Shown here: piece after piece, positions 3,060 to 63,017 of the stretch
How positions within the stretch are numbered: position 1 is the stretch's first letter
Layout of the letters: every line of letters starts with the position of its first letter
Origin: an uncultured bacterium
GTDB taxonomy: Bacteria > Hydrogenedentota > Hydrogenedentia > Hydrogenedentales > JAEUWI01
Assembly: GCA_963977445.1 (NCBI GenBank)
Contig: CAXBPH010000003.1
Coordinates: 6,529 to 70,528 of the forward strand
Direction: 5' to 3'
Length of the DNA: 64,000 nt
Made by a program: the position numbers and the translations under genes
Notes under the pieces: generated by a model
Seen by the model: the letters and a program-made list of their open reading frames with translations, nothing else
What the model was told of the DNA's origin: nothing
Database searches by the model: none

Positions 3060-3073
3060 CGCCTATCGTAACA

Positions 3074-3083
3074 TTATCGATAA
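3074..3083. promoter_or_regulatory. Perfect 10-bp palindrome TTATCGATAA inside a TAACATTATC motif that recurs at ~3259; candidate LacI operator in an AT-rich divergent promoter
   Basis: Seen directly in the sequence. It lies ~0-40 nt upstream of the candidate LacI starts (ATG 3059, alternative GTG 3017). A second TAACATTATCAGTTACTC copy sits at 3258-3275. Confidence 0.3.
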
Positions 3084-3401
3084 CTCTTAGTCTACTCCCT
3101 ACTTTCCTCCCATAGAAGTTCGGCGCATTTCCAAAACACCAATTTTAATTAACTTGTTTATTTACAATATATTACAGCAACCAACAACAGAACAACCACC
3201 CAACATTAATCTATTCGTATATAATCAATTGACGTAACACCCCTTTCCTGCTACCATTTAACATTATCAGTTACTCACGAATTGATTCATTATTATTTGG
3301 TTGGCGGGGCCTGGAGACCCCCGCGCACGCACAGGGCAGTACCGGCAGTATCCCTTTTCTTTCGAACCGTACACCTATTCTGCTAAACCGTGGAGAGACC
3401 T

Positions 3402-9422: not shown

Positions 9423-12356
9423 TCAGCAGGCGGCGGCGCAGTCCTTTTTCACCTGTCCGATGGCACCGGCCAATTCTTCGGCAGGGGGCAGGTGCAGATA
9501 GACAAAGCCGTCGTTAACTTTTACGTCAAAGGTCGCCACCCGAAGGTTGTCGCCTGAGACGCAAGAGCCGTCTTCGAGAGAGAACTGTTTCTTATGCATG
9601 GGGCAGGCCACCTTCGGCACGCCCTCGTCGTCACCGAGTAATCCACGGGCAAGAACCATGTCTTGCTTGTGGGGACACATATTCTGGGTGGCATACCATT
9701 TATCTTCTTCGCCATAACGAAATACGGCTAACTGCACCCCGCCGTAGCTGACCGCCATGCCCCCCTCTTCCGGGAAGGTACCCACACGTCCGGCTTTCCA
9801 CCAGGACTGGGTCGACCATTCAAAGCCATCGGACGATTTCGCCACAACAGGCCAGTCCACGGGACGTTTCTGGTCGCGCTCTTCCACGTAGCCGATGGTG
9901 GGGTCAGCCTCATCAACGTTGGCAAAGTGCCGGAACAAGGCCCGTTTTTCTGGGTTATTCACCACTTCAGCCCATTCGCACTGGTAGGTATCCACCAGTC
10001 GGGCCATGTCGGCCTCCAGCACTTCGCACAATCCGAGCACATCGCCAATAACGACGTCTTTCAGATGGGCGACGCCACCTTCCAACTTTTCCAACCAGAC
10101 AGAAGTTCGCTGAAGGGGGTCGGCCGTCTGAATGTAATACATGAGAAAGCGGTCGATGTATTTAATGGCCGTTTCCGTGTCGATTTCCGAGGCAAACAAG
10201 TCGGCATGACGGGGTTTGGTACCGCCATTACCGCAGAGGTAAAGATTCCAGCCTTTGTCGGTGGCAATCAGGCCCACATCCTTGCACTGGGCCTCGGCAC
10301 ACTCTCGGACGCAGCCGGACACGGCAAACTTGAGCTTGTGGGGCGAGCGAATGCCGCGATAGCGCTCTTCGATCTCGACAGCGAAGGCGGTGGAGTCCTG
10401 GACGCCATACCGGCACCAGGTCTGGCCTACGCAACTCTTTACGGTACGCACCGACTTACCATAGGCATGACCACTTTCGAAGCCCGCCTCGATGAGCTCT
10501 TCCCAAATGTCAGGAAGCTGCTCCACCCGGGCTCCGAGGAGGTCTACACGCTGGCCGCCGGTAATCTTACAGTAGAGATCATATTTCTTTGCCACCTTAC
10601 CGATGACGATGAGTTTATCGGGGGTTATTTCCCCACCGGGAACGCGGGGTACGACCGAGTAGGTACCCCCTCGTTGGATATTGGCAAGATAACGATCATT
10701 GGTATCCTGAATGGTGGCGTGCTTCACAATGTGGTCATTCCAAAGACTCGCCAGGATGGAGGCCACCACGGGCTTGCAGACTTCGCAGCCCTCGCCGCCG
10801 GTGCCACACCCGGCGAGAATCATCCGAAAGTTTGTGAGCTTCTTCACCTTGACGCTATGGAACAATTCCTGACGACTCATGGGAAAATGGGAGCAGACTA
10901 CCTTCTTCACCACCACACCGGCCCGCTTGAACTCCTCGGCCATAATATCTTTCACCAGGGGAATGCAGCCACCGCAGCCCGTACCAGCGCAGGTAGCACT
11001 CTGCACATCGCCCAAATCACTGAGTTTGTGTTTCCGGATGGCGGTGCAAATTGCCCCTTTACTCACATTATTACAGGAGCAAACCTGGGCGTCATCGGGC
11101 AGAGATGCGGCGCCAGCAGCGCCGTCTCCCCCACTCCCCAGGAGCAGGGTCTTGGGTTCTCCCACAATGCCGTCGAGGCTTCGATAGGTGTGCAGCAATT
11201 TGGCGTAGTCGGAAGTATCCCCCACCAGAATGCCCCCAAGAATCTGGCGGCGGTCCTCGGAGAGAATTATTTTCTTATACACGCCACTGACCGTATCCTT
11301 CACCACCACCGTGTCACTCTTCGGGCCCTCCGTATCAATCGATCCCAGGCTCGCCACTTCCACACCCATCAACTTCAACTTGGTGGACATGTCCGCGCCG
11401 GTAAAGTGGGCCTCATGTCCCATGAGGTTTTCCGCCAGGGTGTCGGCCATCTGGTAACCCGGGCCCACCAAGCCGTAGATCATGCCACCGTGCAGGGCCA
11501 ACTCGCCGATAGCAAAAACGTTGGGATCATTGGTCTGCATCGTATCGTCCACGATGACACCACCCCGTTCGCCTACGGCCAATCCAGACTCCCGGGCCAG
11601 TTCATCCCGTGGTCGGATACCAGCAGAAATGATGAGCATGTCCGTGTCGAGTAAGACATCGTCCATAAAGGTGAGGCCCGTAATCGCGCCGTTCCCTTCG
11701 ATTCGTTTCGTTTGATGCTGAAGCAACACCTTCACGCCGAGGGCTTCAATTTCCCGAACCAACAACTTGGAACCTTCGTCGTCGAGCTGACGGGGCATGA
11801 GTCGCGGGGCGAACTCCACCACGTGTACATCCAACCCCAGGTCGACTACCGCCTTGGCCGCTTCCAGTCCCAAAAGTCCGCCACCAATTACGGTGGCCGT
11901 CTTCGAGTTTTTCGCATAGGCTCTTATGGCATCAAGGTCTTCAATGGTTCGATAGACGAATACGCCTTTTTTATCGACCCCGGCAATGGGCGGCACAAAA
12001 GGTGCCGAGCCCGTAGCAAGTACAAGATAGTCGTAGTGCTCGATGTCACCATCATCGGTAACGATGGTATGGGATTCCCGATCAATCGAAGCCACCCGCT
12101 GACTCGTGTGGAGGGTAACGTCGTTGGCTTCATACCACCCGAGACCATCCAACGTAAGATCTTCGATGGTGTTCGTTCCGAAGTAACTGGTGAGCTGGAC
12201 ACGGTCATAGGCCGGCCGAGGCTCTTCGCCATAAACGACAATATCGTAGTGACTCTTGCCATCGAGTTCTCGGAGTTTTTTGCAGAAACGATGCCCAACC
12301 ATTCCGTTCCCCACCACCACAACTTTCTTTCGAATTATTTCTACGGTTGCTGACAT
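9423..12356 (-). CDS. nirB: Assimilatory NAD(P)H-nitrite reductase, large subunit fused to a C-terminal NirD Rieske domain (NirBD fusion)
   Basis: N-terminal VVVVGNGMVGHRF FAD/NAD fold, BFD-like and nitrite/sulfite reductase siroheme-[4Fe-4S] regions, and a C-terminal CPHKQ...CPMH Rieske-type NirD domain. ORF track starts at 12434; I prefer the ATG at 12356 (MSATVEII). Confidence 0.85.
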   Translation of the reverse strand: MSATVEIIRKKVVVVGNGMVGHRFCKKLRELDGKSHYDIVVYGEEPRPAYDRVQLTSYFGTNTIEDLTLDGLGWYEANDVTLHTSQRVASIDRESHTIVTDDGDIEHYDYLVLATGSAPFVPPIAGVDKKGVFVYRTIEDLDAIRAYAKNSKTATVIGGGLLGLEAAKAVVDLGLDVHVVEFAPRLMPRQLDDEGSKLLVREIEALGVKVLLQHQTKRIEGNGAITGLTFMDDVLLDTDMLIISAGIRPRDELARESGLAVGERGGVIVDDTMQTNDPNVFAIGELALHGGMIYGLVGPGYQMADTLAENLMGHEAHFTGADMSTKLKLMGVEVASLGSIDTEGPKSDTVVVKDTVSGVYKKIILSEDRRQILGGILVGDTSDYAKLLHTYRSLDGIVGEPKTLLLGSGGDGAAGAASLPDDAQVCSCNNVSKGAICTAIRKHKLSDLGDVQSATCAGTGCGGCIPLVKDIMAEEFKRAGVVVKKVVCSHFPMSRQELFHSVKVKKLTNFRMILAGCGTGGEGCEVCKPVVASILASLWNDHIVKHATIQDTNDRYLANIQRGGTYSVVPRVPGGEITPDKLIVIGKVAKKYDLYCKITGGQRVDLLGARVEQLPDIWEELIEAGFESGHAYGKSVRTVKSCVGQTWCRYGVQDSTAFAVEIEERYRGIRSPHKLKFAVSGCVRECAEAQCKDVGLIATDKGWNLYLCGNGGTKPRHADLFASEIDTETAIKYIDRFLMYYIQTADPLQRTSVWLEKLEGGVAHLKDVVIGDVLGLCEVLEADMARLVDTYQCEWAEVVNNPEKRALFRHFANVDEADPTIGYVEERDQKRPVDWPVVAKSSDGFEWSTQSWWKAGRVGTFPEEGGMAVSYGGVQLAVFRYGEEDKWYATQNMCPHKQDMVLARGLLGDDEGVPKVACPMHKKQFSLEDGSCVSGDNLRVATFDVKVNDGFVYLHLPPAEELAGAIGQVKKDCAAAC

Positions 12357-12828
12357 GGTTTGAAGTTTTCCCGCCCAAGCGACTATGGAAAACACCGCAT
12401 TTCGCCTAAGAAAGCGTTTCGGTGATTTACCCATTCAGGAGATCTTCCGACATTTCCGTCATATCGGGATTTGATCGAGAAATGCAATTCTCGTGCCAAT
12501 GAGGCCACACGATTCCGGTTTGAGCTGTTTTCCTGGCTCTCGGAATGGGGCAGTTTGAAAACAATCCACATAAACTAAGGCGTTTACGCACAAAATATGC
12601 CAGTTCGCGCCCACCGGGCTTCCTGTCGAAGTCACTTCCTCTTGTATTTTGCAATGCTGCGGCCACCGCTAGCCGCCCAGTATCGTCGACAAAAAAACTA
12701 CATTTCCGTAGGCATAACTCAAAACCATAACCAATAGGTACTTTTAAAATCCCCCCACCTCAACGACAAGCAGCATGTGCCAGGAATACAAACTACGTGG
12801 TCCATTGTACGCAATCAAGTAACTTTTT

Positions 12829-12844
12829 ACGTATCTAGATACGT
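12829..12844. promoter_or_regulatory. Perfect 16-bp palindrome ACGTATCTAGATACGT in the divergent nirBD/narK promoter region
   Basis: Seen directly. It sits in the AT-rich 630-bp intergenic region between the nitrite reductase and the nitrate transporter. Confidence 0.3.
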
Positions 12845-13062
12845 GCTTCTACCCATATCAATAAAGAATATCACCCAATAAAACAAGCAATTTTCATGCA
12901 GATTATGCGCCCACCTTTCCGGTAGAAACCGTCGACCGATGACGACAATCGCTATCCGTTACCGGGGCGTCAAGGGGCATCCGGGGACCTATTACGCCTT
13001 TGGCACAGATTTCGCGTTCATAGAGAAAATTTCCTGGCCTCCCTTACTGAAAGGAATCCTCT

Positions 13063-46233: not shown

Positions 46234-47043
46234 TTAGACGGCGTCGGAAACGATTTTCTTTCCGGTAACCGGGCAAACTTTGGCTTCACCTTCGGAAGAA
46301 GCGGCTTTGGCCTTGTCACACTCAGACTTGGCTTTGTCGCAGGTCTTGGCTTCGCCTTCGGAAGAAGCAGCCTTGGCCTTGTCACACTCAGCTTTCGCTT
46401 TGTCACAAGTCTTGGCTTCACCTTCGGAAGAAGCAGCCTTGGCCTTGTCACAAGCGGACTTGGGGCATTCGCCTTCAGAGGAAGCAGCCTTCGCTTTGTC
46501 ACAGGTCTTGGCTTCACCTTCAGAAGAAGCGGCTTTGGCCTTGTCACACTCAGACGTGGCTTTGTCACAGGTCTTGGCTTCGCCTTCGGAAGAAGCAGCC
46601 TTGGCCTTGTCACAGGTCTTGGCTTCACCTTCGGAAGAAGCGGCCTTCGCTTTATCGCACTGCTTCGCTTCACCTTCGGAGGAAGCAGCCTTGGCTACCT
46701 TCGTCTTGCAGCAGCTGGACGCTTCACCTTCAGAGGAAGCCGCCAACGCCTTATCGAAGGTCGCCTGCCGGTCGGCGATCAGCTTGGCTTTCTTTTCGCA
46801 TGGCTGAAAGGCATCTTCATTCGCTGCGGAAACCGTCTGCATGCCGAAGAAGGAGGCAACACTGTTCTTAGCACTCGTGATGGCGCAGGAACCTGATGCT
46901 CCGTTGTTCGCAACAACGCCAGCAGTCGCCACGCCGGATACGACGACCATAGCAGCAACGAAGGATGCCCATTTGCCTTTGTTACGTTTCGGTGCTTGAG
47001 CCGTTTCTTCGGTCACAAGCTCTTCCTGATGTTCTTCGTTCAT
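46234..47043 (-). CDS. Single-pass membrane protein with ~10 tandem 15-aa Cys/Lys/Ala-rich repeats (CDKAKAASSEGEAKT), function unknown
   Basis: Short cytoplasmic N-terminus, TM helix WASFVAAMVVVSGVATAGVVA, then the repeat array with ~17 Cys including C-x6-C and C-x4-C pairs. C-terminus VCPVTGKKIVSDAV. ATG at 47043 has GGAG 9 nt upstream. Shadow ORFs exist in the other frames. Confidence 0.55.
   Translation of the reverse strand: MNEEHQEELVTEETAQAPKRNKGKWASFVAAMVVVSGVATAGVVANNGASGSCAITSAKNSVASFFGMQTVSAANEDAFQPCEKKAKLIADRQATFDKALAASSEGEASSCCKTKVAKAASSEGEAKQCDKAKAASSEGEAKTCDKAKAASSEGEAKTCDKATSECDKAKAASSEGEAKTCDKAKAASSEGECPKSACDKAKAASSEGEAKTCDKAKAECDKAKAASSEGEAKTCDKAKSECDKAKAASSEGEAKVCPVTGKKIVSDAV
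46270..46745. repeat. ~10 tandem copies of a 45-bp coding repeat (with 12-21-bp insert variants)
   Basis: Near-identical units GCTTCACCTTCGGAAGAAGCGGCTTTGGCCTTGTCACA... are visible directly. The repeat is continuous and in frame, so it is not spacer/repeat organised like a CRISPR array. Confidence 0.8.
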
Positions 47044-47562
47044 TGAATATTGCTCCACAAGTGTTTAAATAAGTTACCCATGCAATCTACACGATAAACA
47101 TAGATTCAAAATTGACCCGATTTCATGTCAAAACCTGGAATTATTCGTAGGGTTCAGCATAACAAAAACTCCGCCACTTCGCAATCCTGTCGAAGCGCGC
47201 ATTTCCACGAACCCGAAAGAAATGAAAACAACCTAACCATCTCAATTTAAAGGCGTTACATAAAGTGTGTCTTTAACCCACAATCGCTGGAACGGCTACG
47301 TCGTCAGCTCACCAAGTTTCAATGCAGTGCAATTTGTCCGAAAAATCGCTGAAAACAGGTTGGTTGGCCGAGAACATTCATGAAATAACTGCCCCATAGG
47401 CCATGCCCCCACGAAGCCCCGACTCAACCGGTATTTTGCCGACTTCCGACGATGTTGCCGATGTTTTTGAGGAAGTGGTGGCGGAGTCTTGTGCGGGTGT
47501 CTTGGTGGCTTGGGTCGTTGTCGGTCATCGTCGGCTGCCTTTTAAGATTGCCGAAAAGGGGC

Positions 47563-47766
47563 CTACTCTGCGGGATGCGCAGCCGTGATCGCGACGGGCT
47601 CCGAGGCCTCGCGGCTCTTGCGCATGAGTTCCTGGTCGATCATGCCAAGTTCGGCGGCCAAACCGGCTGCGGCTACGGACAGGCAGGTTTCTTCCACTTC
47701 CGCCGCGTGGCGCATCCATTCGGGAAAAGGAAACGCATCACTTGTGCTATTCATATCCATGGTCAT
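47563..47766 (-). CDS. Small hypothetical protein (67 aa); its start overlaps the stop of the upstream GNAT-like gene by 4 nt
   Basis: ORF only. No motif recognised. The overlap suggests translational coupling. Confidence 0.3.
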   Translation of the reverse strand: MTMDMNSTSDAFPFPEWMRHAAEVEETCLSVAAAGLAAELGMIDQELMRKSREASEPVAITAAHPAE

Positions 47767-48329
47767 AGGTGCCTTTCCAGAATTCTCTCTGCATTGTCGC
47801 GCGAAAGTTCAAAGTACGTCAAGTTTTCGAAATCCACGTCAGGGCCCAACGGTGTCATCCAACACGCCCCTCCGTAGAAGGGTACGGACTGCGGCAAGGC
47901 ATGTAGGCCCACTCGACCTCCAAAGCCTTCGTCCCAGCTTTGCCGGACGGCGCGCTCGAACAGGTGGGGACCAATCAGGCCGTATTTTCGCGTTTGCCCG
48001 ATACCTGGAATGGTCCAGTTCCAAGGGGCGACTTCCAGGAAGTCTATATATACCAGCGGCTTGCCATGATCTTCGCCGAGTTGGGAGAAATGTGTCCCAG
48101 ACTTGGTCAGCATGGCACCCTGCCATTCGTCGTCACAGACCACGGCGAATCCAGATGCAGGAACCAGGCGCAGGTGCTGCGCCTTGGCCCGCCAGTTCCA
48201 GTTGAGGCTCTGGGGTCGCTCGGAATAGGGAAGACCCGCGCGGGCTATTTCGAGAAGGATGCGGGAGCGTTCTGGAGTCCACACCGATTCCAGTGTCAGC
48301 AGGTCTTCAGGCGCGACGAGGAGGGCCAA
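47763..48329 (-). CDS. GNAT-fold acyltransferase-like protein (tentative)
   Basis: 188 aa. VYIDFLEVAPWNW and EGFGGRVGLHAL weakly resemble GNAT motif regions. It sits between the low-GC acpS and the small ORF. Confidence 0.4.
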   Translation of the reverse strand: MALLVAPEDLLTLESVWTPERSRILLEIARAGLPYSERPQSLNWNWRAKAQHLRLVPASGFAVVCDDEWQGAMLTKSGTHFSQLGEDHGKPLVYIDFLEVAPWNWTIPGIGQTRKYGLIGPHLFERAVRQSWDEGFGGRVGLHALPQSVPFYGGACWMTPLGPDVDFENLTYFELSRDNAERILERHL

Positions 48330-48348
48330 GCTGTTCTGCCTTCACGGC

Positions 48349-48732
48349 CTACTCACCCGTTGCGATGGCACTGGCGAAAGCGATTCCGCTCGAATAGCTA
48401 ATACTCACATGCCAATCTAAGATACCGAGCTCATCAGAAAACTTTGCCACGTCATGATTTAGCCTTACATATGGAGCCCCGTTCTTCCCCCGAAGAATTT
48501 CTATTCCATGCCACGTTATTTTTCCAGAAAACCCAGTACCAAGAGCCTTTGCGATGGCCTCCTTTGCGGCGTATCTACCTGCATAGTAACGATAGTGGGC
48601 TGGGGGAGGGTCGGCGGCTTCTCGCTCGTCTATTGAGCAAAAGCAATTGACCCAGCTATTCGTACCTGAGTCAATTTCATTTCTTATACGTTGAATTCTT
48701 TCAATATCGATTCCGTGACCAATGATTCGCAT
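48349..48732 (-). CDS. acpS: Holo-[acyl-carrier-protein] synthase (4-prime-phosphopantetheinyl transferase, AcpS type), low GC and probably island-borne
   Basis: MRIIGHGIDIERIQRI...YAAKEAIAKALGTG...WHVSISYSSGIAFASAIA aligns along its whole length with the AcpS family. The gene is ~40-50% GC in a ~60% GC genome. Confidence 0.85.
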   Translation of the reverse strand: MRIIGHGIDIERIQRIRNEIDSGTNSWVNCFCSIDEREAADPPPAHYRYYAGRYAAKEAIAKALGTGFSGKITWHGIEILRGKNGAPYVRLNHDVAKFSDELGILDWHVSISYSSGIAFASAIATGE

Positions 48733-48740
48733 GCATCCCC

Positions 48741-50624
48741 CTATTTTATTTCTCGAACTACGATATCTCTCTTGTCAAGATCCAGGTCAACAGTTCCGCC
48801 TCCACGAGATTTCAACTCTCTCCAAACTTTGAAGCCCTGCAGGATAGCGCGTTCCCATTCTCCCGTTGTGCATGCTGACACCTCAAGATGAAGGACGGTA
48901 TTCTTTATCATTCGTAACAATTCACTACTGACCGACAATTTACCCTCTAGGAAGTTGTAGTCACGAGCGTAGGCAAAAATCATTGCCGATAGTGCCTCTT
49001 CCGTGACAATCGCCCTTGCACCATCTTCCACTTCGTCAACTTTCGGATCACTCTTTCGCTTCGCTGTGAACATTTTCCTGACGAGTGGAGACCAACCTAG
49101 AACCGCAGCGAAAGACAAATGGATTACATCGTGGAGTCCGTAACCATCGTTCTCGTAAGCGTTGTCAGTCAAGTCATCACCAAACTGCTGACCCTTGTAC
49201 ATCACCCGTATTTTTGGGTTGTTGAATTCGTCATGGTATGTGCTGAAATCGAGTGAAAAACTACGTGGAAATTGTTCATTTTCGGGATATCCTGCATCGA
49301 ACGGAGTTCGCGAAGGTAACGTGCCCCACCGTTCATCACATTTCGCCAAGTTAAGCTCGGCGATCTCCTTCAGATCGAGATTAAACTTCGTGGCGACGTT
49401 TGCCACATACCACAGCAAGTCTCCGAGTTCCTCGCTTAAGCGGTCCTTAAACAATTTATGCGTGTCACCGTCCCGAAGATATTTCTTGTATTCACTCAAC
49501 AATTCACCGGATTCGCTTGCGAGGCCCAACAGAGGAATCGTTAGCGAAGACTCGTCCACACCGGGATTTTGATCTGTCCCGGCAACTTTCTCTTGGTATT
49601 TGCCCATATCCATGGCTCTTGTCTCCAGGTTCACCCCCGTACTCGATCGATTTTCTTCGTTTGAGCTGGTACGGCTGATTAATTCGTTTATGCCCCACTT
49701 GGGTGGGTACCAATAGTCGATTGGTTCTAAAATAGGCTTCAGCTTCTGCTTTATGCGACTTCGCCCTGATTTTCCGACGAATTCTGGATGTACAACTCGC
49801 GCGTACTTGTCTACTTCACAAAACAGGTTTTGGCAATCAATCAATTGAAGCGGCCTTCCCCATAAGTCGGAAAAATCTATGCCCAGTCGATTAAATTCCT
49901 CATCCTGCCTCTCGGTCACCCACCGGATTATTTGTGCAGTATCCTTCTTTCCCGGGTTTAGAAAGCACTTCTGGATTCCATCGAGTGCTCCGGGGCCTGC
50001 GACCACAAAGTCCATTTCAGAGAAGTTAATGATGGTGCTGTAGTTCAAATCGGTAACATACTGATAGGCTAGAAAGTTGCCTATCCCAGGTGATGACCGC
50101 ATTGATTCGAACGCCTCTTCCATGGACTCCGAATCAGCAATTCGTTTCGGTAGCTCCGAAGACATCATGTATTCAAGTAACTTAAGATGGTTCTGGTGTT
50201 TGAATGTTAGCGAAAATTTTCGGACGGAGGGCATTATATAGGCTGCGGAATAGATCCGCTGGCCTCGCGTCATCGCCTGACTTAAGACACGGTCATATGC
50301 CTTGTATGAGTAATCGGCGTATGTGAGATGGCCAAGCTCATTCTCAAGTAGTTTCCATGTATCGATGCGATTGAAAAGTTTGAATAGAATTATGCGAAAA
50401 AACACTTCAGCTGGATGAGTCGGGAGGTCTTCGTTGTATATTACGTTCCTAATGAGATATTGGCTCACTCTGTCAGAGGCTCTGTAGGCGTTCGTGAATT
50501 TGTGGTTTTGAAGCACAGCGTCATCCGTCCACGGAAGAGGGCGCTTACTTATTCGTCGAAAGAAGATTCTCTGTCGCTCGGCGGCGAATTTCCAATACGT
50601 ATCGTATACAGGAGTAGTTTTCAT
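48741..50624 (-). CDS. 627-aa multidomain protein: N-terminal uncharacterised domain (possibly aGPT-pyrophosphorylase-like) plus a central MazG-like NTP pyrophosphohydrolase domain
   Basis: Central ESGELLSEYKK...EELGDLLWYVANVATKFNLDLKEIAELNLAKCDERW matches the MazG EExxE / ELGDxL motifs. The N-terminal 300 aa (MKTTPVYDTYWKFAAERQRIFFRR...PWTDDAVLQNHKFTNAYRASDRVSQYL) reminds me of nucleotide-base hypermodification-associated families, but I cannot verify that here. Confidence 0.6.
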   Translation of the reverse strand: MKTTPVYDTYWKFAAERQRIFFRRISKRPLPWTDDAVLQNHKFTNAYRASDRVSQYLIRNVIYNEDLPTHPAEVFFRIILFKLFNRIDTWKLLENELGHLTYADYSYKAYDRVLSQAMTRGQRIYSAAYIMPSVRKFSLTFKHQNHLKLLEYMMSSELPKRIADSESMEEAFESMRSSPGIGNFLAYQYVTDLNYSTIINFSEMDFVVAGPGALDGIQKCFLNPGKKDTAQIIRWVTERQDEEFNRLGIDFSDLWGRPLQLIDCQNLFCEVDKYARVVHPEFVGKSGRSRIKQKLKPILEPIDYWYPPKWGINELISRTSSNEENRSSTGVNLETRAMDMGKYQEKVAGTDQNPGVDESSLTIPLLGLASESGELLSEYKKYLRDGDTHKLFKDRLSEELGDLLWYVANVATKFNLDLKEIAELNLAKCDERWGTLPSRTPFDAGYPENEQFPRSFSLDFSTYHDEFNNPKIRVMYKGQQFGDDLTDNAYENDGYGLHDVIHLSFAAVLGWSPLVRKMFTAKRKSDPKVDEVEDGARAIVTEEALSAMIFAYARDYNFLEGKLSVSSELLRMIKNTVLHLEVSACTTGEWERAILQGFKVWRELKSRGGGTVDLDLDKRDIVVREIK

Positions 50625-50672
50625 ATTAACCGGCCGAAAGTATACGAGTACAGTGGAGTCATTTTTGTCTTT

Positions 50673-51497
50673 CTAAAAATCGTCATGAATAGGCTCGGAA
50701 ACTGTGCTCGTCACAGATTTGCAAAGTATTTTGTTAGAGCGCGTGATCAAGTCACGTGCATTGCGTACCCCCCAAGGAAATTGTTTTGAATCCTTAATTC
50801 TGGCTGGGCCTTTATCAATTTCGGCATGTGTGGAGACACAGGTGAGCGAACCGACGGTTAGGCCAGCTCGCTCTGCCACAAACGCCTGAAGTTGCCCCAA
50901 ACCGATTAGATTGCCAAGGCACCGAGATATGTACGTGTGGTTACGGTACATTGCTGTAAGCATCAAGCCCTTGTTTGGATGACATTTAAAGCTCAAAAAA
51001 CTGAGGCATTGTCCCCCCCATCGACTACGCCCATCCTCCAAGGGATCGTAAACCGCTAGCTCATATGCCGACTTGAACTTCTGACCACCATTCTCGCGTT
51101 CTTGTAGCTTACCGATCAGCTGTTCTAGTGGATTGTATGTCTTGCCGAGCCTAGTCTGATGCCTGGTCATTCGCTCAAAGTACCTACCCCAGCGCCGGGT
51201 CTTCGTCAGTCTATCGAACGCTTCATGGTATTTCTCGTAGAACACCGGAGCCCCGTGCTGATTGTAGAGTGATTGGGGAAAAATCGTGTTACAGACCGTG
51301 GATATGGGGTAGCAATCGTACTTTCGTAGAAAATCGTCTACCTCTGAAATGATTTCATTGTCAGTTGAATCGAACGATACGGGATTTTCTACATCAACAA
51401 TAACGTTGTATCCCTCATCATTGTGCTTCATGATCTCCATTGCAGCCGCTACCCACGCTCGCGCACAACTCTTCTGTGTCGGGATGGCGATGTACAT
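50673..51497 (-). CDS. Thymidylate-synthase-fold enzyme (ThyA / dCMP-dUMP hydroxymethylase superfamily, divergent)
   Basis: GGQCLSFLSFKCHPNKGLMLTAMYRNHTYISRCLGNLIGLGQLQAFVAERAGLTVGSLTCVSTHAEID aligns with the ThyA core PCHAFFQFYV...[21 protein letters not shown]...VGDFVWTGGDTHLY. QCL sits at the position of the catalytic PCH. Confidence 0.55.
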   Translation of the reverse strand: MYIAIPTQKSCARAWVAAAMEIMKHNDEGYNVIVDVENPVSFDSTDNEIISEVDDFLRKYDCYPISTVCNTIFPQSLYNQHGAPVFYEKYHEAFDRLTKTRRWGRYFERMTRHQTRLGKTYNPLEQLIGKLQERENGGQKFKSAYELAVYDPLEDGRSRWGGQCLSFLSFKCHPNKGLMLTAMYRNHTYISRCLGNLIGLGQLQAFVAERAGLTVGSLTCVSTHAEIDKGPARIKDSKQFPWGVRNARDLITRSNKILCKSVTSTVSEPIHDDF

Positions 51498-51509
51498 AGA
51501 AAGGTCTCC

Positions 51510-52157
51510 CTAATGCGTAATAAATGCGGAAAAGATTCGCGACCCGAGATAACGTTTGCTCAACCAGGCGTAGCCATGAAGGCCCCAGGATTCACCCCAA
51601 CTGTTTCTGATAGCGATATACTTTTCGCTGTTTTTCGTAGCTGTTGCGACGGCAACAACAGCGTGTCGTCGAACCGGGTCGATAGGCTCAGTTGAATCAA
51701 CGATTCCAACGTTGTCCGGGGTATAGAACGCATCTGAGAACGACATCGCGAGGACGACGGGCTTGTCGGTTTGGATGCAGTCCCAAACGGCGTCAAATGT
51801 GGCGGTTAAGGCGCTAGTATGGCATTGGAAAAGTTGCCCTACGTTGTTGGGAGGCTTCCAGTGCGAAATTGGGCTTGGCAATGCCTTGAGGTAGGGCCAG
51901 GCGAGTTCGTTCGGTTGCCCGTCCCCAGTTAATGCAGAGCATACCCCCGGAATGGAAACACCCAAATCTGGAGAGCTTCTCTCCCACTTTATCGCGTAGT
52001 AGTATAGGTACTCACACGACAAGGGTTGCCAATTCCTCTCCAGTGCGGCGGAATGTGCGTCGCTCGTGGCGAACGCCAGGCATGTCGGGCGCGCTCCTTG
52101 ATCGCGAGCGCTGCCAAAATATGGTCGTAGGTCGTGACGGATAATCATCGAACTCAT
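51510..52157 (-). CDS. Papain-like cysteine peptidase (C1A-like, compact, no pro-region)
   Basis: QGARPTCLAFA matches the QG-x-C-G-S-C-W-A-F spacing of the catalytic Cys. HAVVAVA matches the His region. NSWGESWGLHGYAWL matches papain NSWG..WG..GY. Confidence 0.7.
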   Translation of the reverse strand: MSSMIIRHDLRPYFGSARDQGARPTCLAFATSDAHSAALERNWQPLSCEYLYYYAIKWERSSPDLGVSIPGVCSALTGDGQPNELAWPYLKALPSPISHWKPPNNVGQLFQCHTSALTATFDAVWDCIQTDKPVVLAMSFSDAFYTPDNVGIVDSTEPIDPVRRHAVVAVATATKNSEKYIAIRNSWGESWGLHGYAWLSKRYLGSRIFSAFITH

Positions 52158-53167
52158 GGGCGACTCAACATTGCTTGGCGTTGAGCTGGCAGGAGGCCGG
52201 TTTGTAGTGGTCCTGTCAAGTTTACATCAAATTCGAGCGACTGTAGAGATTCATCATCTGAGAGCCATGGTCGCTGTTCACGAAGATTCACGTGACCGAG
52301 TGCCGACTGCTCCGGTTCAGCCACGATCTTACGTTCGACAATACTACCGATTGCATTTTCAGTCGAGCGGGCCTCTCGGATGTCCTCAACTATTTTGAGG
52401 CCGACTTTGGAGAGACTGTCAAACGACCACATGTACCCTGATGAAGCGTGTTCGATCAGCTCGAGAATCACGATGTCGTGCGCGCTTCCTTCAATTAGGA
52501 GCCTTTGATCGCCCATGCCAAGCACCCATATATCCGCATACCATGATTCTGGGGTGTGCTGTTTGGTGAGCTGCTGCTTGATAGATTTTGGTTGGGTTTT
52601 GAGCAGGGAGTCTCGTACTGATTTCGAAATCGCATTGTGCTTGAGGAGCGCATGACAAGTCGCCGCATAGCTTGACCCCATCCGTAAGGCCAATTGGTAG
52701 ACTATTTTCGGAGACGTTAGGTCTGAGCTCGCCCACCCTTGTTGACCCATGTGGTGCGTGATTAGCCATTTCGGTGTAAGCAGTTCGGAGGCAAACGCAT
52801 TTGCCTGCAGTTCTATGAGATCAAGAGCTGCCCCGCTCTCAAACGGAGTTCGGTTTAGCCTGGATTCGTCATCTAGACTAGACGAGTGCCCCATGACCGC
52901 GTGACCCAATTCGTGTGCTGCCGTGAAGCGCTGTACGGAAAGGGGGCGTTGTGTGGTCAACAGAACTCCAGATCCATTTTCTTCCAAATAGCATCCGAGC
53001 AGCCCCTTCATCGGTTGGAACATGACAGGTATGTCGAGAGCTGCGAGAAGTCCAAACACATCGATGCGTCCCACCCCACTCTTTACCTTTTTTTTGACAC
53101 CATGGCTAGCATGTAATCGGTTAGCAGCAAGAGCCGCCTCGAGTATAGCCTTACGAACGTCTGGCAT
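52154..53167 (-). CDS. ImmA/IrrE-family zinc metallopeptidase (COG2856) with a ~190-aa C-terminal domain of unknown function
   Basis: HEXXH in AAHELGHAVMGH, preceded by the typical ImmA helix. Its start overlaps the C1 peptidase gene by 4 nt. Confidence 0.75.
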   Translation of the reverse strand: MPDVRKAILEAALAANRLHASHGVKKKVKSGVGRIDVFGLLAALDIPVMFQPMKGLLGCYLEENGSGVLLTTQRPLSVQRFTAAHELGHAVMGHSSSLDDESRLNRTPFESGAALDLIELQANAFASELLTPKWLITHHMGQQGWASSDLTSPKIVYQLALRMGSSYAATCHALLKHNAISKSVRDSLLKTQPKSIKQQLTKQHTPESWYADIWVLGMGDQRLLIEGSAHDIVILELIEHASSGYMWSFDSLSKVGLKIVEDIREARSTENAIGSIVERKIVAEPEQSALGHVNLREQRPWLSDDESLQSLEFDVNLTGPLQTGLLPAQRQAMLSRP

Positions 53168-53170
53168 AGG

Positions 53171-53551
53171 TCAGCCCCCTTTTTGCGCTTTCCTCGATTT
53201 CAAGAATTCTGCGAATCTGGCGAGTTCGCTGCGATCTTCCGGGGCCAATTCAGATACCTGCCGTGCCAGATGAGCGACTTCCTTGTCAACTGGATGCGTG
53301 TCAGCGGTTTCACCGGTAAAAAAGTTCAGAGACCTCCCGTAGAGTTCGGCTAATTTCTTGAGTTCAAACACTTCAACTTTCCTCAGCCCTGCTTCCATCA
53401 AAGATAGCGCGGAACGAGAAGTACCTACTTTCGTGGCTATTTCGTTCTGGGAGAATCCAACATACTCTCGGGCTTCACGTAGCCGGTCACCAAGTACCTT
53501 TCTATCGCTATCACCTTCAACTTTTTTATTGTTGGGAGCTCTACTACTCAT
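53171..53551 (-). CDS. XRE-family (Cro/C1-type) helix-turn-helix transcriptional regulator
   Basis: LGDRLREAREYVGFSQNEIATKVGTSRSALSLMEAG is the HTH_3 motif. The ATG at 53551 overlaps the stop of the upstream ACP-like gene in an ATGA arrangement. Confidence 0.8.
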   Translation of the reverse strand: MSSRAPNNKKVEGDSDRKVLGDRLREAREYVGFSQNEIATKVGTSRSALSLMEAGLRKVEVFELKKLAELYGRSLNFFTGETADTHPVDKEVAHLARQVSELAPEDRSELARFAEFLKSRKAQKGG

Positions 53552-53868
53552 TTGCTTCCCTTTCTTTTTTCCTCTTCTTGGCACAATTTATCTATACGCA
53601 GCATCATATCGTCAATTGCTTCATCAACACTTTGATAGCCGCCTTTTCGTATAGTCTTGTCTGGAGGTAGTCGAAAACCAACGATTGGCTCGATGGCTAA
53701 CAAAGTGCTTACGACGGCAAAGGAGTCCAAAAGTGGCTCCCAAACCTTGCGCAACAGAGCCCCCTCATCCACAATCTCGTCAAGCTTGTCAGTCAAAACT
53801 GCCCGAATTTCGCAAGAAGTCAAATGAACATCTTCGTCGATTTGAAACGCTGTGGATGTGTTTGCCAT
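53548..53868 (-). CDS. Acyl-carrier-protein-like (phosphopantetheine-binding) small protein
   Basis: LLDSFAVVSTLLAIEPIVGFRLPPDKTI...SVDEAIDDMMLRI parallels ACP helix II/III (DSLDTVELVMALEE...FGIEIPDE...TVGDLVDYI), with Ser in DSF at the 4-prime-PP attachment position. Confidence 0.55.
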   Translation of the reverse strand: MANTSTAFQIDEDVHLTSCEIRAVLTDKLDEIVDEGALLRKVWEPLLDSFAVVSTLLAIEPIVGFRLPPDKTIRKGGYQSVDEAIDDMMLRIDKLCQEEEKRKGSK

Positions 53869-53935
53869 ACCGAATCTCCTGTGCTACTTGGTTAGGATAC
53901 CAAAATTCAGTTGGAAAATCAAACACAAAATATCA

Positions 53936-53958
53936 ATATGTTAGATTTTCTAACATAT
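53936..53958. promoter_or_regulatory. Perfect palindrome ATATGTTAGA-TTT-TCTAACATAT upstream of the island operon; candidate XRE-repressor operator
   Basis: 10-bp arms seen directly, ~70 nt upstream of the ACP-like gene start. A second long dyad (TATAGCCCAGGG...CCCTGGGCTATA) lies at 53961-54024. Confidence 0.45.
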
Positions 53959-54059
53959 GGTATAGCCCAGGGTTTTGCTTGTTCGCGCTTGGGGCGTGAA
54001 CTTGCTGCGCCCTGGGCTATAGTGTGTCACCCCGTTGGGGCTATTCAGATCGCCCTGTA

Positions 54060-57941: not shown

Positions 57942-58056
57942 CCGATTCTTCTGCGGGCGGAGCCATCCGACACACACCGTGCAACCCTCGGACGCTCCAC
58001 ATTGCTTCGCCGTCTTTGCCCGGTTATATTGAATGCCAACGCGAAAGGGCACGACC

Positions 58057-59310
58057 ATGAGTACCAATTACGGCGACTACCAATTGGGCGTCTATTTCCA
58101 GGGCATGATGGGCCACCTACCCGACTTTCCGTTTGACATCGACGAAGTGGAAGAACAGGCAAAGGCCTGCCTCGACCCCAGGGCCTATTGGTATGTGGCT
58201 GGCGGGGCCGGGGCCAGCGAAACGGTACGCCGCAACCGCGTCGCCTTTTCAGGCTGGCAAATCATCCCCCGTATGCTGGCCGACGTGTCGCAACGCGACC
58301 ACCGCATCGAACTCTTCGGCCAGACCTACAACGCGCCCCTTTTCCTGGGACCAGTGGGTGTCCAGGAGATCATCCACCCCGAAGGGGAACTGGCCGTGGC
58401 CCGGGCCGCCAAGTCTCTGGCCATCCCCATGGTCTTGTCCACCCTGTCATCCCACCCGCTGGAAGACGTGGCGGAGACCTTGGGCGATTCGCCGAAGTGG
58501 TTTCAGCTCTATTGGCCCGGTGACCCCGAATTGGCCACAAGCCTCATCGAGCGGGCCGAAGCAGCAGGCTACACGGCCATTGTCGTGACCCTGGACACCA
58601 AACTCATGGGCTGGCGTGAAAAGGACCTGCAGACGGCCTACCTTCCCTTTCTGGAAGGCAAGGGCATCGCCAACTACGTCACCGACCCGGTCTTTTGCGA
58701 CGCCCTCGAAAAGCCCCCCATGGATGATATGCAGGCCGCCATCGGACACTGGACCCAGGTTTACGCCGACGCCAGCCAGACGTGGAAAAATATTGCCGAC
58801 CTGCGTAAGGTCACTACGCTACCCATCATCTTGAAGGGCATCCTCCATCCCGACGATGCACGCCTGGCCTTCGACCACGGTGTCGATGGCATCATCGTCT
58901 CCAACCATGGCGGACGTCAGGTAGATGGGGCCATCGCCGCACTCGATGCCTTGCCTGCCATCGTGGACCGGGTACCGGAATTGCCTGTCTTATTCGACAG
59001 CGGCATCCGCCATGGGGCCGACATGGTCAAGGCCCTGGCCCTCGGTGCGAAGGCCGTCTTACTCGGTCGGCCCTATGTCTACGGCCTGGCGGTGGATGGC
59101 GAAAATGGCGTGAAGAATGTGGTGCAGCGCCTCCTCGCAGAATTTGACGTGACCATGGCCCTCGCCGGTGTCGCGAAGGCGAGTACCTTGACGCGGGAAC
59201 ACATCGTGCGGGGCGAAATCTTGCACCCCACCGTCGTCGAGAGCCCTGCCCAGCCGCCGCCCACCGATACGAGGTACGCCTACATTCCCGCCATGCCAAC
59301 CGGCGAATAA
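58057..59310 (+). CDS. FMN-dependent alpha-hydroxy-acid dehydrogenase/oxidase (LldD / lactate monooxygenase family)
   Basis: SNHGGRQVDGAIAALDALP and GADMVKALALGAKAVLLGRPYVYGLA are the family signatures. Confidence 0.8.
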   Translation: MSTNYGDYQLGVYFQGMMGHLPDFPFDIDEVEEQAKACLDPRAYWYVAGGAGASETVRRNRVAFSGWQIIPRMLADVSQRDHRIELFGQTYNAPLFLGPVGVQEIIHPEGELAVARAAKSLAIPMVLSTLSSHPLEDVAETLGDSPKWFQLYWPGDPELATSLIERAEAAGYTAIVVTLDTKLMGWREKDLQTAYLPFLEGKGIANYVTDPVFCDALEKPPMDDMQAAIGHWTQVYADASQTWKNIADLRKVTTLPIILKGILHPDDARLAFDHGVDGIIVSNHGGRQVDGAIAALDALPAIVDRVPELPVLFDSGIRHGADMVKALALGAKAVLLGRPYVYGLAVDGENGVKNVVQRLLAEFDVTMALAGVAKASTLTREHIVRGEILHPTVVESPAQPPPTDTRYAYIPAMPTGE

Positions 59311-59521
59311 GCCCGCGAGATGCGCCGTGTTACGTACTGGTTCCATGGCGTAAATTCGTATCCGGCGATTGGCGTTGACGTTGTCTCAGGCAGGAATGCC
59401 CAAGCCCCGTTTGGCGAATCGTCTTTAAGGGGCTTAGGCATTCCTGCCTGAGACAAAGCACATCAAGGGACATGCATGGGCCATCAACGTCATGAAATAG
59501 CGAAGGGGAACCTACCCCCCT

Positions 59522-60601
59522 TTACTTCGTCACCAACCGCCCCACGGGATAGCCCGCCGAATAGTCAAATGCCCAACACCCATTGGGCGTGGTGTAGCAA
59601 ATCGTTTCCTTGCGCTCAAAATCGGTCTTGCCCTGCCGCACCGCCGCATCAGGGCTGTCTGGCAACAACTGGGGATCGGCCACGACTTCCAGCATTTTGG
59701 TCGGGTCACCCATCCCATGTCCAGTGCCCGTGAAAATGACGCCATCCAAATCTTTTTCTTCCGGATACCGTGCCACCACGGGCAGTCCCGCCGCCTTCAT
59801 ATTGGCAACCACCACCCGCTTGTCCTCGACCGGACAGACCTCGTCCGTCGCGCCGTGGACCACAAAAATCTGCGTTTCCTGCCCATAGTCTTTCATTTGC
59901 TTGAGGTGGGTGGTCTCCCCGAGATCCCGAAGGACCTGGGCATCGGCCGTAAGATAGGCGGGACTCTCGGGGTCCTGCGAATACCCCGCGTTCAGGGGCG
60001 AACCCCCTTCGAGATTAAAGGCGATGTCATCGCTCAACACGGCCATCCCACAGAAATCGATAATGGCGGCAAAGGTGCGTGGGGCCAGTTTGTTCGCCAT
60101 CTGGGTCACATTGCCTCCGCCCGAATACCCGGTGCAGTAAATTCGACCGGTATGAAAAGCGATGCGCTCCCGTTCCAGCCCGCTATACATCCAATGAAGA
60201 GAACGCAGGGCATCTAAGGCCTGGAGGTAGCCATAGTCATAGGGCGGCATGGTCGTGCCATCATAGGGACCGCTCTGAAGATAGTCCACGCAAATAGCCA
60301 CCACATTATAGCGGTCCGCCAGGGTCTGGGGATCGGGCACGCCGTCCGCATGGGTACCGGTCCAATAATGGAGGGTCAGAAAGAGGCCCGTCTTTTCATT
60401 AATATTCGCCTGCTTCATTCCCGGGTAATACACATAAGCCCGAATCGTCCGGGGACCTTCCTGAAACGCCCATTCCTGTGCCGGGAGCTCCGCCGTGCCA
60501 TTTTCGGCAGGCAAGGGCGGCCAGGGGCGATCGTCGGCGAAGGCACCACAGGCCAGACTCAACACAACAAGGACGATAGGGAATAATGACTTCATGGACA
60601 A
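59522..60601 (-). CDS. Secreted alpha/beta-hydrolase (esterase/lipase-like), paralog 1
   Basis: Signal peptide and the GYSGGGN nucleophile elbow. ~70% identical to the gene at 61944..63017. Confidence 0.7.
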   Translation of the reverse strand: MSMKSLFPIVLVVLSLACGAFADDRPWPPLPAENGTAELPAQEWAFQEGPRTIRAYVYYPGMKQANINEKTGLFLTLHYWTGTHADGVPDPQTLADRYNVVAICVDYLQSGPYDGTTMPPYDYGYLQALDALRSLHWMYSGLERERIAFHTGRIYCTGYSGGGNVTQMANKLAPRTFAAIIDFCGMAVLSDDIAFNLEGGSPLNAGYSQDPESPAYLTADAQVLRDLGETTHLKQMKDYGQETQIFVVHGATDEVCPVEDKRVVVANMKAAGLPVVARYPEEKDLDGVIFTGTGHGMGDPTKMLEVVADPQLLPDSPDAAVRQGKTDFERKETICYTTPNGCWAFDYSAGYPVGRLVTK

Positions 60602-60706
60602 ACTCCAAATTGTTTCGACTTAAGACTTCCCGCCTCAGGAGCTTAAGAAACTGGCCCCTGACGCAGCAAGATCACCGTGACTTATTCTTGTCGGTTTTCT
60701 AAATTG

Positions 60707-61897
60707 CTACCGAAGGCGAAACTCACCAATCAATCCAGGCCGTCGCGCAAGCAAACTCTCTAAGTGACTATCTGCCCACATTTCGATGCGAAGTGCCGAA
60801 TCTGATTGGTTGTGGTTCTCGATTATTTGAATAGCATCTGTGCTGAATCTGCCGGACGTCGCAATAATGTGAACATCAACTCGCGGCGGCTCCCAGAGTT
60901 TCATTTGCTCTCTCAAAGTCGCAATTTCCTTAGCACCGACGCTTTTCGACAGCCAATGCTTGCATTGAATAATCACTCGCAGGCGAAACGTTCCGCCTAG
61001 TTTGTCGAGAAACACTCTTTGGCACGAAAGATCCCGTCCTCTGTCTGACGCGTTCGTCTTAGTAAGCCACTCCGCATTTTCGTAACCTTCGGTTTGCGAT
61101 ATCAGATTGAAAACCAATCTCTCGAAATCATCCTCATCGATGGCTTCCCAGTTTAGCTTGGTTGCGATTTCTCCGACGGGCCTAGCCTTAACTAACTCAC
61201 CCAAATCGTCGACGGCCACCGGTAATGGGTCGGAACTACCGTATAAAATCTCCGTCATCCCCGCGTCGACAGCTGGCCAATCGTGCTTTATTATGTCTCG
61301 AAGATCGCCAATCATACCGTAATGAAGGTGCCTTTTCAGATCACCCCATCTCGGAGGACGCTTGGCACTACTTCCCAAGATAGTATCGATTCTGGAAACA
61401 CTGGAGACCAATACTTCCCAGTCGTCACCGTCGACAGAACCGTTAGCCTCGAGTTTGCTCGGATAGTCTGTGCGAAGACGCGCCAGCGCTAAATTGGCGA
61501 TACGTATCTCTTCAAGTAATGCGTGACGAAATACCGTTCTCCGTGACCTATTCAACCGATAACGGTACTCTTTGAGGTCTTTCTCTGGCGAGAATATGTG
61601 CTCATCTATTATTACGGCACTCTCAAAGTCGCCAATCTCCATGGCGTCAAATCTGAATTGTCCGATTTCATTTAGCTCTAAGAGTGAATCTGGCATTGTC
61701 CATCCATCAATCTTAGGAAGAGCTTCACGTACTTGACGATAATCTCGGCAGCAATCATCGTACACTCCGTCGGTCATGTCCCCGAACGAAACACTTTCAG
61801 GAATCATCGATTTGATCTTTTCCCACAAAGCTTCTAACTTCACAAGATTGGCTTCGGTTGCTTCAAATTGCTTCAATGCATCGTTCAATGAGCTCAT
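60707..61897 (-). CDS. Restriction-endonuclease-like (Mrr-cat type PD-(D/E)xK) domain protein with an uncharacterised N-terminal domain; low GC (~48%)
   Basis: The C-terminal region RGRDLSCQRVFLDKLGGTFRLRVIIQCKHW fits the D-x-G-x-D...Q-x-K pattern of the Mrr catalytic domain. Base composition is far below that of its neighbours. Confidence 0.55.
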   Translation of the reverse strand: MSSLNDALKQFEATEANLVKLEALWEKIKSMIPESVSFGDMTDGVYDDCCRDYRQVREALPKIDGWTMPDSLLELNEIGQFRFDAMEIGDFESAVIIDEHIFSPEKDLKEYRYRLNRSRRTVFRHALLEEIRIANLALARLRTDYPSKLEANGSVDGDDWEVLVSSVSRIDTILGSSAKRPPRWGDLKRHLHYGMIGDLRDIIKHDWPAVDAGMTEILYGSSDPLPVAVDDLGELVKARPVGEIATKLNWEAIDEDDFERLVFNLISQTEGYENAEWLTKTNASDRGRDLSCQRVFLDKLGGTFRLRVIIQCKHWLSKSVGAKEIATLREQMKLWEPPRVDVHIIATSGRFSTDAIQIIENHNQSDSALRIEMWADSHLESLLARRPGLIGEFRLR

Positions 61898-61943
61898 CTA
61901 GATTTGCTCCACCCTACAGCTGGCCGCGGTCACCCAACCCACC

Positions 61944-63017
61944 TTATTTCGTCACCATCCGCCCCACGGGATAGCCCGCCGAATAGTCGATTTCCCAACA
62001 CCCATTGGGCGTGGTGTAGCAAATCGTTTCCTTGCGCTCAAAGTCGGCCGTACCCTGCCGCACCGCCGCATCGGGGCTGTCCGCAAGCAACTGGGGGTCG
62101 GCCATATGCTGCACAATCTTCGTGCGGTCACCGAGACTGTGACCCGTACCCTTGAACACCACGTCGTCCAAGTGCGCATCGGTCAGGAACAACGCCGTCA
62201 CCGGCATACCCGCCGCCACCATGTTCCGCACCACCTCTTCCTTGTCCGCCACGGGACAAACGTCGTCGGTTGTTCCATGGACCACAAAAATCTTCGTTTC
62301 CTGCCCGTAGTCCACCATCTGCTTCAGGTGGGTGGGATTGCTGAGATCACGCAGGGCCTGGGCGTCGGGGGAGAGGTATTCGGGAGTTGCCGGGTCCTTA
62401 CTGTAGCCCGCGTTAAGCCGTGAGCCCCCTTCGATACCAAAGGCGATATCGTCGCTCAGTTTGGCCATGCCGCACATATCGACAATCGCGGCGAAGGTCC
62501 GGGGCGCAAGCTTATTGACCATCTGGGTCACGTTACCGCCGCCCGAGCCGCCGGTAGAGTAGATACGCCCCGCGTTAAAGGCCGTACCCCCTTCCTGGAG
62601 TCCATTGTAGACCCAATACAGGGCACGAAGCGCATCAAGCCCTTGCAGATAGCCATAGTCATAGGGCGGCATGTCGTCTTCGTATTTGCCGCTCTGAAGA
62701 TAGTCCAGGCAGATGGCAACCGTGTTGTAGCGGTCCGCCAATAGCTGGGGGTCGGCCGTGCCTGACGCATTGGTGCCACCCCAATTGTGGAGGCTGAGGA
62801 AAAGACCCGTGTGTTCGTTCACATTGGCGAGGGCCTTGCCGGGGTAATACACATAGGCCACAAACGTCCGTGGACCGTCCTGAAAGGCCCATTCCTGCGC
62901 GGGGAGTTCCGCCGATGCGTTTTCAGCGGGCAACGCGGGCCAGGGCCGCTCATCGGCGGCATAGGCTGAAATAGAAGCAAGACAGGCCAACAAGGCAAGG
63001 GCGATTCGAAAACGCAT
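61944..63017 (-). CDS. Secreted alpha/beta-hydrolase (esterase/lipase-like), paralog 2
   Basis: Signal peptide MRFRIALALLACLASISAYA and GGSGGGN. The 3-prime ~150 bp is ~90% identical at DNA level to the paralog 1 gene. Confidence 0.7.
   Translation of the reverse strand: MRFRIALALLACLASISAYAADERPWPALPAENASAELPAQEWAFQDGPRTFVAYVYYPGKALANVNEHTGLFLSLHNWGGTNASGTADPQLLADRYNTVAICLDYLQSGKYEDDMPPYDYGYLQGLDALRALYWVYNGLQEGGTAFNAGRIYSTGGSGGGNVTQMVNKLAPRTFAAIVDMCGMAKLSDDIAFGIEGGSRLNAGYSKDPATPEYLSPDAQALRDLSNPTHLKQMVDYGQETKIFVVHGTTDDVCPVADKEEVVRNMVAAGMPVTALFLTDAHLDDVVFKGTGHSLGDRTKIVQHMADPQLLADSPDAAVRQGTADFERKETICYTTPNGCWEIDYSAGYPVGRMVTK

Follow-up and report, generated by a model that had tools for sequence, protein, structure and literature searches.

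We describe a 396-residue, Mrr-type nuclease encoded in a genome of marine Candidatus Hydrogenedentota, within a window of 64,000 nucleotides (contig CAXBPH010000003.1, positions 6,529 to 70,528). The nuclease gene (60707-61897, minus strand) lies between two tandem paralogs, here called estB and estA, for putative secreted esterases. The explanation that we consider best, and rather probable, is that a foreign, stand-alone defence nuclease was inserted at a variable site and that the near-identity of the esterase 3′ ends has a separate origin in gene conversion. Among related loci the site is empty, or occupied by a different foreign gene, or reduced to a single esterase.

A sequence-only reading of this DNA had described a low-GC, Mrr-type nuclease gene between esterase paralogs that are about 70% identical overall and nearly identical over their last ~150 bp, and had proposed either gene conversion or an insertion brought in, or kept in place, by recombination between these repeats. 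The description has held up well; the two proposals have fared differently.

The insertion site in related genomes

On the minus strand, estB (63017-61944) is followed after 46 nt by the nuclease gene (61897-60707), and this after a further 111 nt by estA (60595-59522). The nuclease open reading frame (ORF) has a GC content of 0.478, and of 0.494 at third codon positions (GC3), relative to 0.597 and 0.715 for estB, 0.578 and 0.675 for estA, and a window mean GC of 0.562. The earlier figure of about 48% is thus accurate at 47.8%, but the gene is not 12-15 points below its neighbours: the difference is 10-12 points overall, and 18-22 points at third positions. Equally low GC is found in only 3.7% of 1191-bp windows, most of which belong to a second island of low GC, at 47-54 kb.

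Relatives were found by a scan with one genome per species, and two further loci by a metagenome scan; the related loci number 35, with each relative covered within 10 kb on either side. A tblastn search with the nuclease gave no match in any of these loci over this range. On this absence, comparison at the level of sequence shows the gene to be a lineage-specific insertion of foreign DNA at a variable site. A copy with host-like composition in relatives had been named beforehand as evidence against a foreign origin; in the relatives the orthologous site lacks the gene, so no such copy occurs there.

The relatives present the site in several states. Locus L001, of a close relative, has the order orf-TMEM220-estB-(207 bp)-estA-FMN dehydrogenase, without the nuclease, and in L003 the two paralogs also stand side by side without it. 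The metagenome relatives L019 (4781-5990) and L020 (55-1265) have one estB-type esterase gene with the FMN dehydrogenase gene directly after it. In L002 (7189-8073), from a second close relative, a different gene opens on the estB stop codon, the two overlapping as ATGA, and is followed for 295 codons before the contig ends. This gene is 41-50% GC within a contig of about 58-60% GC, and encodes an AAA_22 ATPase resembling the PADLOC candidate PDC-S59; its family (~414 aa) has a patchy distribution in Gammaproteobacteria, with members in Vibrio, Marinobacter, Photobacterium and other genera, and a Vibrio cholerae copy (L046) is cargo of a filamentous prophage, located at the prophage end. The spacer 3′ of estB has gained foreign single genes at least twice, and as in an integration hotspot, the site is empty or carries different cargo in related genomes.

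L003 (3316-5610), from a more distant metagenome-assembled genome, differs in gene order, the TMEM220-adjacent paralog being estA-like and the next one estB-like, opposite to the window and L001; no FMN dehydrogenase gene follows the paralogs. This order suggests rearrangement or further conversion at the locus.

The inserted low-GC cassette is about 1.28 kb long and contains one gene (60650-61930, minus strand; edges approximate, placed from the GC profile and from breaks in similarity to the estA tail and the L001 leader). It lies inside the spacer of about 200 bp between the old tandem paralogs and replaces the hairpin-element spacer of L001. The left edge is at most 16 nt past the estB stop codon, where similarity to the estA tail ends, and the right edge, marked by the return of weak similarity to the L001 estA leader, is about 55 nt upstream of the estA ATG. 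The nuclease gene has a GGAG ribosome-binding site 9 nt upstream, and no terminator-like site separates its start from the estB stop; because of this, its own GGAG site, and the 46-nt gap, it is probably co-transcribed with estB. An integron gene cassette was considered and rejected, there being no attC consensus (R′′/R′ RYYYAAC...GTTRRRY) and no integrase-like match at a meaningful E-value.

The nuclease family and its N-terminal domain

Residues 252-380 match the Pfam family Mrr_cat (PF04471) with 47.5 bits against a gathering cut-off of 21 (E = 2.3e-12). The description as a solitary, foreign, Mrr-type PD-(D/E)xK nuclease is supported. More than 1,580 homologues, nearly all with a length of 395-397 aa and an identity of 53-61% to the window protein, are distributed across Gamma-, Beta- and Alphaproteobacteria, with sources that include Vibrio, Marinomonas, Halomonas, Aeromonas, Denitratisoma, Burkholderiales, and Lysobacterales; the source records name them 'restriction endonuclease' only. 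An alignment of 39 homologues (53-61% identity) has 76 invariant columns, including the PD-(D/E)xK residues E259, D285, D289, Q311, and K313, and because the invariant D...QxK site is kept, the window copy is intact. The nuclease domain (aa 249-387) is also matched by the PADLOC profiles PDC-M58A (E = 4.5e-11) and PDC-S73 (E = 4.7e-4). A sequence search against Protein Data Bank (PDB) chains gave a chance match alone, to an endolysin (E = 0.58), and we found no named system with this architecture in the literature.

The N-terminal domain (aa 1-250) is uncharacterised, as had been noted, although it spans about 250 rather than 270 residues; it has no Pfam match even at E<=10. A search with these residues of 1.84 billion representatives returned 409 clusters, most of them with the same ~395-aa Mrr_cat architecture. 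The full N-domain is also fused to SduA_C (P0144), TIR (P0146, P0263), Pkinase (P0267), and GAF (P0154) domains. An AlphaFold2 model of the N-domain is an all-alpha bundle of long helices (pLDDT 89, pTM 0.76), and no winged-helix DNA-binding domain was detected in aa 1-250 by Pfam (E<=10), in this model, or as a significant PDB match. When PDB and BFVD (viral models) were searched by Foldseek with the full-length model, nothing significant was returned for the N-domain. Invariant polar residues (E15, N17, Q80, R82, Y111, R112, R119, D186, R189, H190, D198, and D206) hint that the N-domain may contain a binding pocket.

Genomic contexts and the case for a defence role

The homologues have no conserved neighbour gene across the examined contexts, of which eight are distinct. 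A defence, second-nuclease or mobile-element gene is nearby in five of the eight, a small sample: Hachiman HamA/HamB with a serine recombinase (L039); DarT-NADAR with a small Mrr_cat protein, an integrase and a relaxase (L043/L044); an integrase, a PLD protein, and an ISL3 transposase (L037); an HNH nuclease (L047); and a conjugative Agrobacterium plasmid with repABC, another restriction endonuclease, and an integrase (L049). The other three have hypothetical or housekeeping neighbours, namely an island of hypothetical genes (L036), a helicase among housekeeping genes (L048), and plain housekeeping genes (L041). Relatives are also carried by nine plasmids, and a search of a phage collection found no homologue.

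Most likely the gene product (396 aa) acts in defence as a stand-alone sensor-effector protein, as suggested by the swapping of TIR and Shedu effectors on the same N-domain, the sporadic and mobile distribution, and the lack of a partner gene or methyltransferase. The modular, all-alpha N-domain would sense an infection or foreign-DNA cue, or control oligomerisation, and its signal would permit DNA cleavage by the C-terminal domain, the Mrr-type nuclease (D...QxK), with neither a methyltransferase nor any other partner taking part.

Several observations weigh against this reading or against the insertion. The sensing role of the N-domain is deduced from domain swapping only. A Foldseek search of that domain against PDB found only generic helical bundles (best E = 0.055, TM ~0.2), and in the full-length AlphaFold2 model the nuclease domain is poor, with a pLDDT of about 58 relative to ~90 for the N-domain. 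No full-length model of the protein is present in PADLOC v2 or NCBIfam, the PADLOC matches being to the nuclease domain only. Some homologues (L041, L048) lie among housekeeping genes, and the window gene itself is alone between housekeeping-type genes, outside any multi-gene defence island. The sequence-only reading had linked the architecture to such islands, which is correct in part: the site has a foreign gene in L002 and homologues elsewhere are in islands or mobile elements, but the window gene sits alone. As for the insertion, the cassette edges have no target-site duplication, direct repeat or conserved flank; no tRNA was found at the cassette, nor any integrase-like tblastn match at a meaningful E-value in the window, which is a weak test; the imperfect hairpin downstream of the nuclease gene does not, by inspection, fit the attC core consensus; and the absence from relatives applies to the range searched.

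The confidence of the full-length model is the reverse of expectation: the well-known Mrr_cat domain is modelled poorly despite 39 aligned homologues, and the unknown N-domain is modelled well.

The main rival to a sensor-effector protein is an Mrr-like restriction enzyme of Type IV (modification-dependent), in which the N-domain reads modified DNA and guides the Mrr_cat domain to cleave it. This is less likely, if still a serious competitor. The Mrr_cat match has the D...QxK motif typical of Mrr, there is no methyltransferase nearby and the architecture is solitary, as in Mrr and MspJI, and Foldseek weakly aligns the C-terminal domain to MspJI, EcoT38I, and AF1548. However, the N-domain is all-alpha with long helices, is neither a winged helix nor an SRA-like reader, lacks a Pfam or PDB match, and is also found on TIR, protein kinase, and GAF proteins, none of which acts on DNA. 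Because such non-DNA effectors share this N-domain, a modified-base reader is less likely than a signal-sensing or oligomerisation module.

It is improbable that the protein has no defence function and is instead a selfish or toxin-type nuclease, or a housekeeping DNA repair enzyme. Some homologues are in housekeeping neighbourhoods, and carriage by mobile elements also suits an addiction or competition module. On the other hand, the gene is sporadically distributed, missing from close relatives and foreign in composition, homologues are repeatedly located beside known defence genes, effector swapping with TIR and a Shedu nuclease is typical of immune proteins, and no conserved antitoxin-size ORF is adjacent.

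The 3′ ends of the esterase paralogs

Both esterase genes encode alpha/beta-hydrolase proteins of 357 aa with signal-peptide-like N-termini that match DUF2920 and Peptidase_S9, and more weakly the PHB-depolymerase esterase models (Pfam, NCBIfam); the label 'esterase' is reasonable but unproven. The upstream paralog estB (61944-63017, minus strand) codes for a predicted secreted alpha/beta-hydrolase with a GGSGG serine motif and has orthologs in L001, L002, L019, and L020. The product of estA (59522-60595, minus strand) has a GYSGG motif, and its true start is the ATG at 60595 rather than the TTG at 60601. The two proteins are identical at 247 of 357 residues (69%), and the gene bodies at about 70% of nucleotides, in agreement with the sequence-only reading. 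That reading was also correct about the 3′ ends, which are 91% identical over 155 nt (estA 59525-59680 and estB 61948-62102). Similarity stops about 12-16 nt past the stop codons, so that tail repeat copy B (61932-62102, minus strand) comprises the final ~155 nt of estB and ~12 nt past its stop, and copy A is at 59510-59680 (minus strand). In the tail, estA and estB use different codons for 6 of 45 identical, degenerate residues; in the body they do so for 98 of 192 (p = 2e-6, Fisher test). Protein constraint therefore does not explain the tail identity.

To place the tails in the history of the genes, estA and estB of the window were compared with those of L001 as an outgroup, using four-taxon informative sites. 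In the body, 102 sites support the orthologous grouping, 10 the concerted grouping and 11 neither, and in the tail the counts are 1, 11, and 2, respectively, with the switch located about 40-50 codons upstream of the stop. Correspondingly, the distance of the window estA body is 0.17 to L001 estA and 0.30 to the window estB, whereas its tail is at 0.10 from the window estB, 0.17 from the estB clade, and 0.24 from its own ortholog. The window estA agrees with the estB clade at 17:5 sites in the tail versus 47:145 in the body (p = 1.7e-6), which identifies estB as the donor and copy A as the recipient. The derived residues FERKET and YSAG are common to both window copies and occur in no relative.

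This phylogenetic discordance shows the 3′ identity of the paralogs to be the product of interlocus gene conversion from estB to estA, which replaced the final ~130-155 nt of estA; the part with a clear phylogenetic signal spans at least about 59525-59640. The conversion postdates the split from the L001 lineage, and is not very recent, because the converted tract is about 10% diverged. Conversion, the first of the two earlier proposals, is thereby upheld.

The second proposal, that the nuclease arrived or is kept through homologous recombination between the near-identical tails, is slightly more improbable than a role outside defence. It draws on the 155-nt direct repeats that are 91% identical, on the proximity of the left cassette edge (at most 16 nt) to the end of repeat copy B, and on the clear evidence for homologous exchange at this locus. 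But the tails are direct repeats with a 2,422-bp period that enclose the nuclease gene plus the estA body, not the cassette alone; the right cassette edge has no repeat; and the cargo of L002 differs in its junction, which falls precisely on the stop codon. The nuclease and estA are deletable as a 2,422-bp unit through the tail repeats, and since exchange between them would remove the nuclease, the repeats would not maintain it.

Moreover, relatives are consistent with deletion of this kind. The L019 and L020 sequences have the estB body and tail, a ~130-bp element, and then the post-estA flank of L001, with the switch at the element end; we infer that they are the expected product of recombination between 3′ repeats that deleted estA. 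The divergence is 30% for the paralogs and 17-20% for the split of these genomes, so that the paralogs are older than the split, and loss of estA is therefore likelier than independent gain. L001, which lacks the nuclease, has near-identical 3′ elements, so that homogenisation of the 3′ ends recurs at this locus without the nuclease and conversion is separate from the insertion.

In L001 the ~130-bp element is present nearly identically after both paralogs (6868-7000 and 8149-8280). It is hairpin-rich with AAAGGAC / GTCCTTT inverted motifs, occurs once in each of L019 and L020, and is absent from the window, where there is an unrelated hairpin; it may be a REP/MITE-like terminator element.

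Selective constraint from an overlapping antisense gene or RNA element is a very improbable source of the tail identity: antisense ORFs mirror each other at 59476-59733 and 61904-62155, and protein conservation within the esterase family is highest at the C-terminus, but constraint is expected to conserve tails across genomes rather than inside one, and the window tails are 10% apart from each other and 17-29% from those of L001 and L003 at the nucleotide level, share 11 derived sites against one orthologous site, and have no Rfam match, so that phylogeny and the absent Rfam family rule it out. The two antisense ORFs (plus strand, 85 and 83 aa) are alike solely through the similarity of the tails and have no sign of being genes; the coordinate 59476, given previously as the start of the region of interest, is the start of one of them.

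Other features of the window

An FMN-dependent dehydrogenase gene (58033-59310, plus strand) converges on estA across a hairpin (59381-59456) with 28-nt arms that are 96% complementary. The hairpin, of which the window has a single copy, is not related by sequence to the element of L001, has only a chance miRNA match in Rfam (E = 0.68), and is probably a bidirectional terminator. Rfam gave no family for the cassette.

A second, larger low-GC island (47000-54000, minus strand, 45-53% GC) lies ~7 kb from the nuclease gene and resembles a conflict/defence or mobile-element remnant. It codes for a 627-aa protein with HMUDK_hel, MazG, and MazG_C domains (48741-50624), a 274-aa ORF without a Pfam match, a papain-like Peptidase_C1 protein, a protein with Peptidase_M78 (IrrE-like) and Inhibitor_I42 domains (52154-53167), and a 137-aa ORF (53171-53584) in which an XRE-type helix-turn-helix was judged by eye only, without a family search. 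The 1-kb bins at 3001-4000 and 12001-13000 also have low GC, about 0.50 and 0.49 respectively, relative to the window mean of 0.56.

Significance

The processes seen in the window are ordinary ones – horizontal insertion of a small gene, and conversion and deletion between tandem paralogs – and the comparative evidence for them, from an uncultured phylum, is unusually clean. The locus shows that repeats made by gene conversion can leave a new gene easily lost.

The protein family is the more useful outcome, being large, strongly conserved, partner-less and labelled 'restriction endonuclease' only, with an uncharacterised N-domain that is swapped among classic immune effectors. We tentatively suggest, as a possibility that falls a little short of an even chance, that this N-domain represents a new and widespread class of single-protein immune sensors with an interchangeable effector (Mrr, Shedu, TIR, kinase, or GAF), and that the window gene is a functional, newly acquired member. 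If so, an uncultured phylum has recently gained a functional member at a recurrent cargo site. If the N-domain is a sensor, the 396-aa protein would also be a compact system in which to study the control of a PD-(D/E)xK nuclease by a new sensing module. The nuclease family is a possible addition to defence-finder libraries.

Comparison with known systems

The exchange between the esterase genes has the usual characters of interlocus gene conversion between tandem paralogs: a tract in which the copies of one genome are alike, synonymous divergence is lowered, and the tree disagrees with that of the remaining gene. As in other cases of conversion and unequal recombination, a deletion variant is present in relatives. 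Nothing sets it apart from a textbook case, which here is limited to the 3′ ~155 nt.

The insertion site is similar to the defence-island hotspots of E. coli (PMC10121019) and the hotspots of P2 and P4 (PMC9122126), in which one intergenic site between conserved core genes has varied foreign genes, or none, among closely related genomes. It differs from these in that the cargo is a single gene without a recognisable integrase, tRNA or satellite backbone, and from known integration hotspots in being flanked by tandem paralogs, with two cargo types observed.

The nuclease shares with Mrr and other Mrr_cat Type IV enzymes a C-terminal PD-(D/E)xK domain with E...D...QxK, and a solitary arrangement without a methyltransferase. 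E. coli Mrr has a winged-helix DNA-binding N-domain, in contrast to the 250-aa all-alpha module of the window protein. The PADLOC profiles PDC-M58A and PDC-S73 match the nuclease domain, but have lengths of 154 and 752 and other architectures, and leave the N-domain uncovered.

A further likeness is to Shedu (SduA; Gu et al., bioRxiv 10.1101/2023.08.10.552793). In the window protein the nuclease domain is Mrr_cat rather than SduA_C/DUF4263, and Pfam and PADLOC give no Shedu match for it. However, Shedu is likewise a single polypeptide in which a variable N-terminal domain, a sensor or regulator, is joined to a PD-(D/E)xK-type nuclease, and P0144, a relative of the N-domain described here, carries SduA_C itself.

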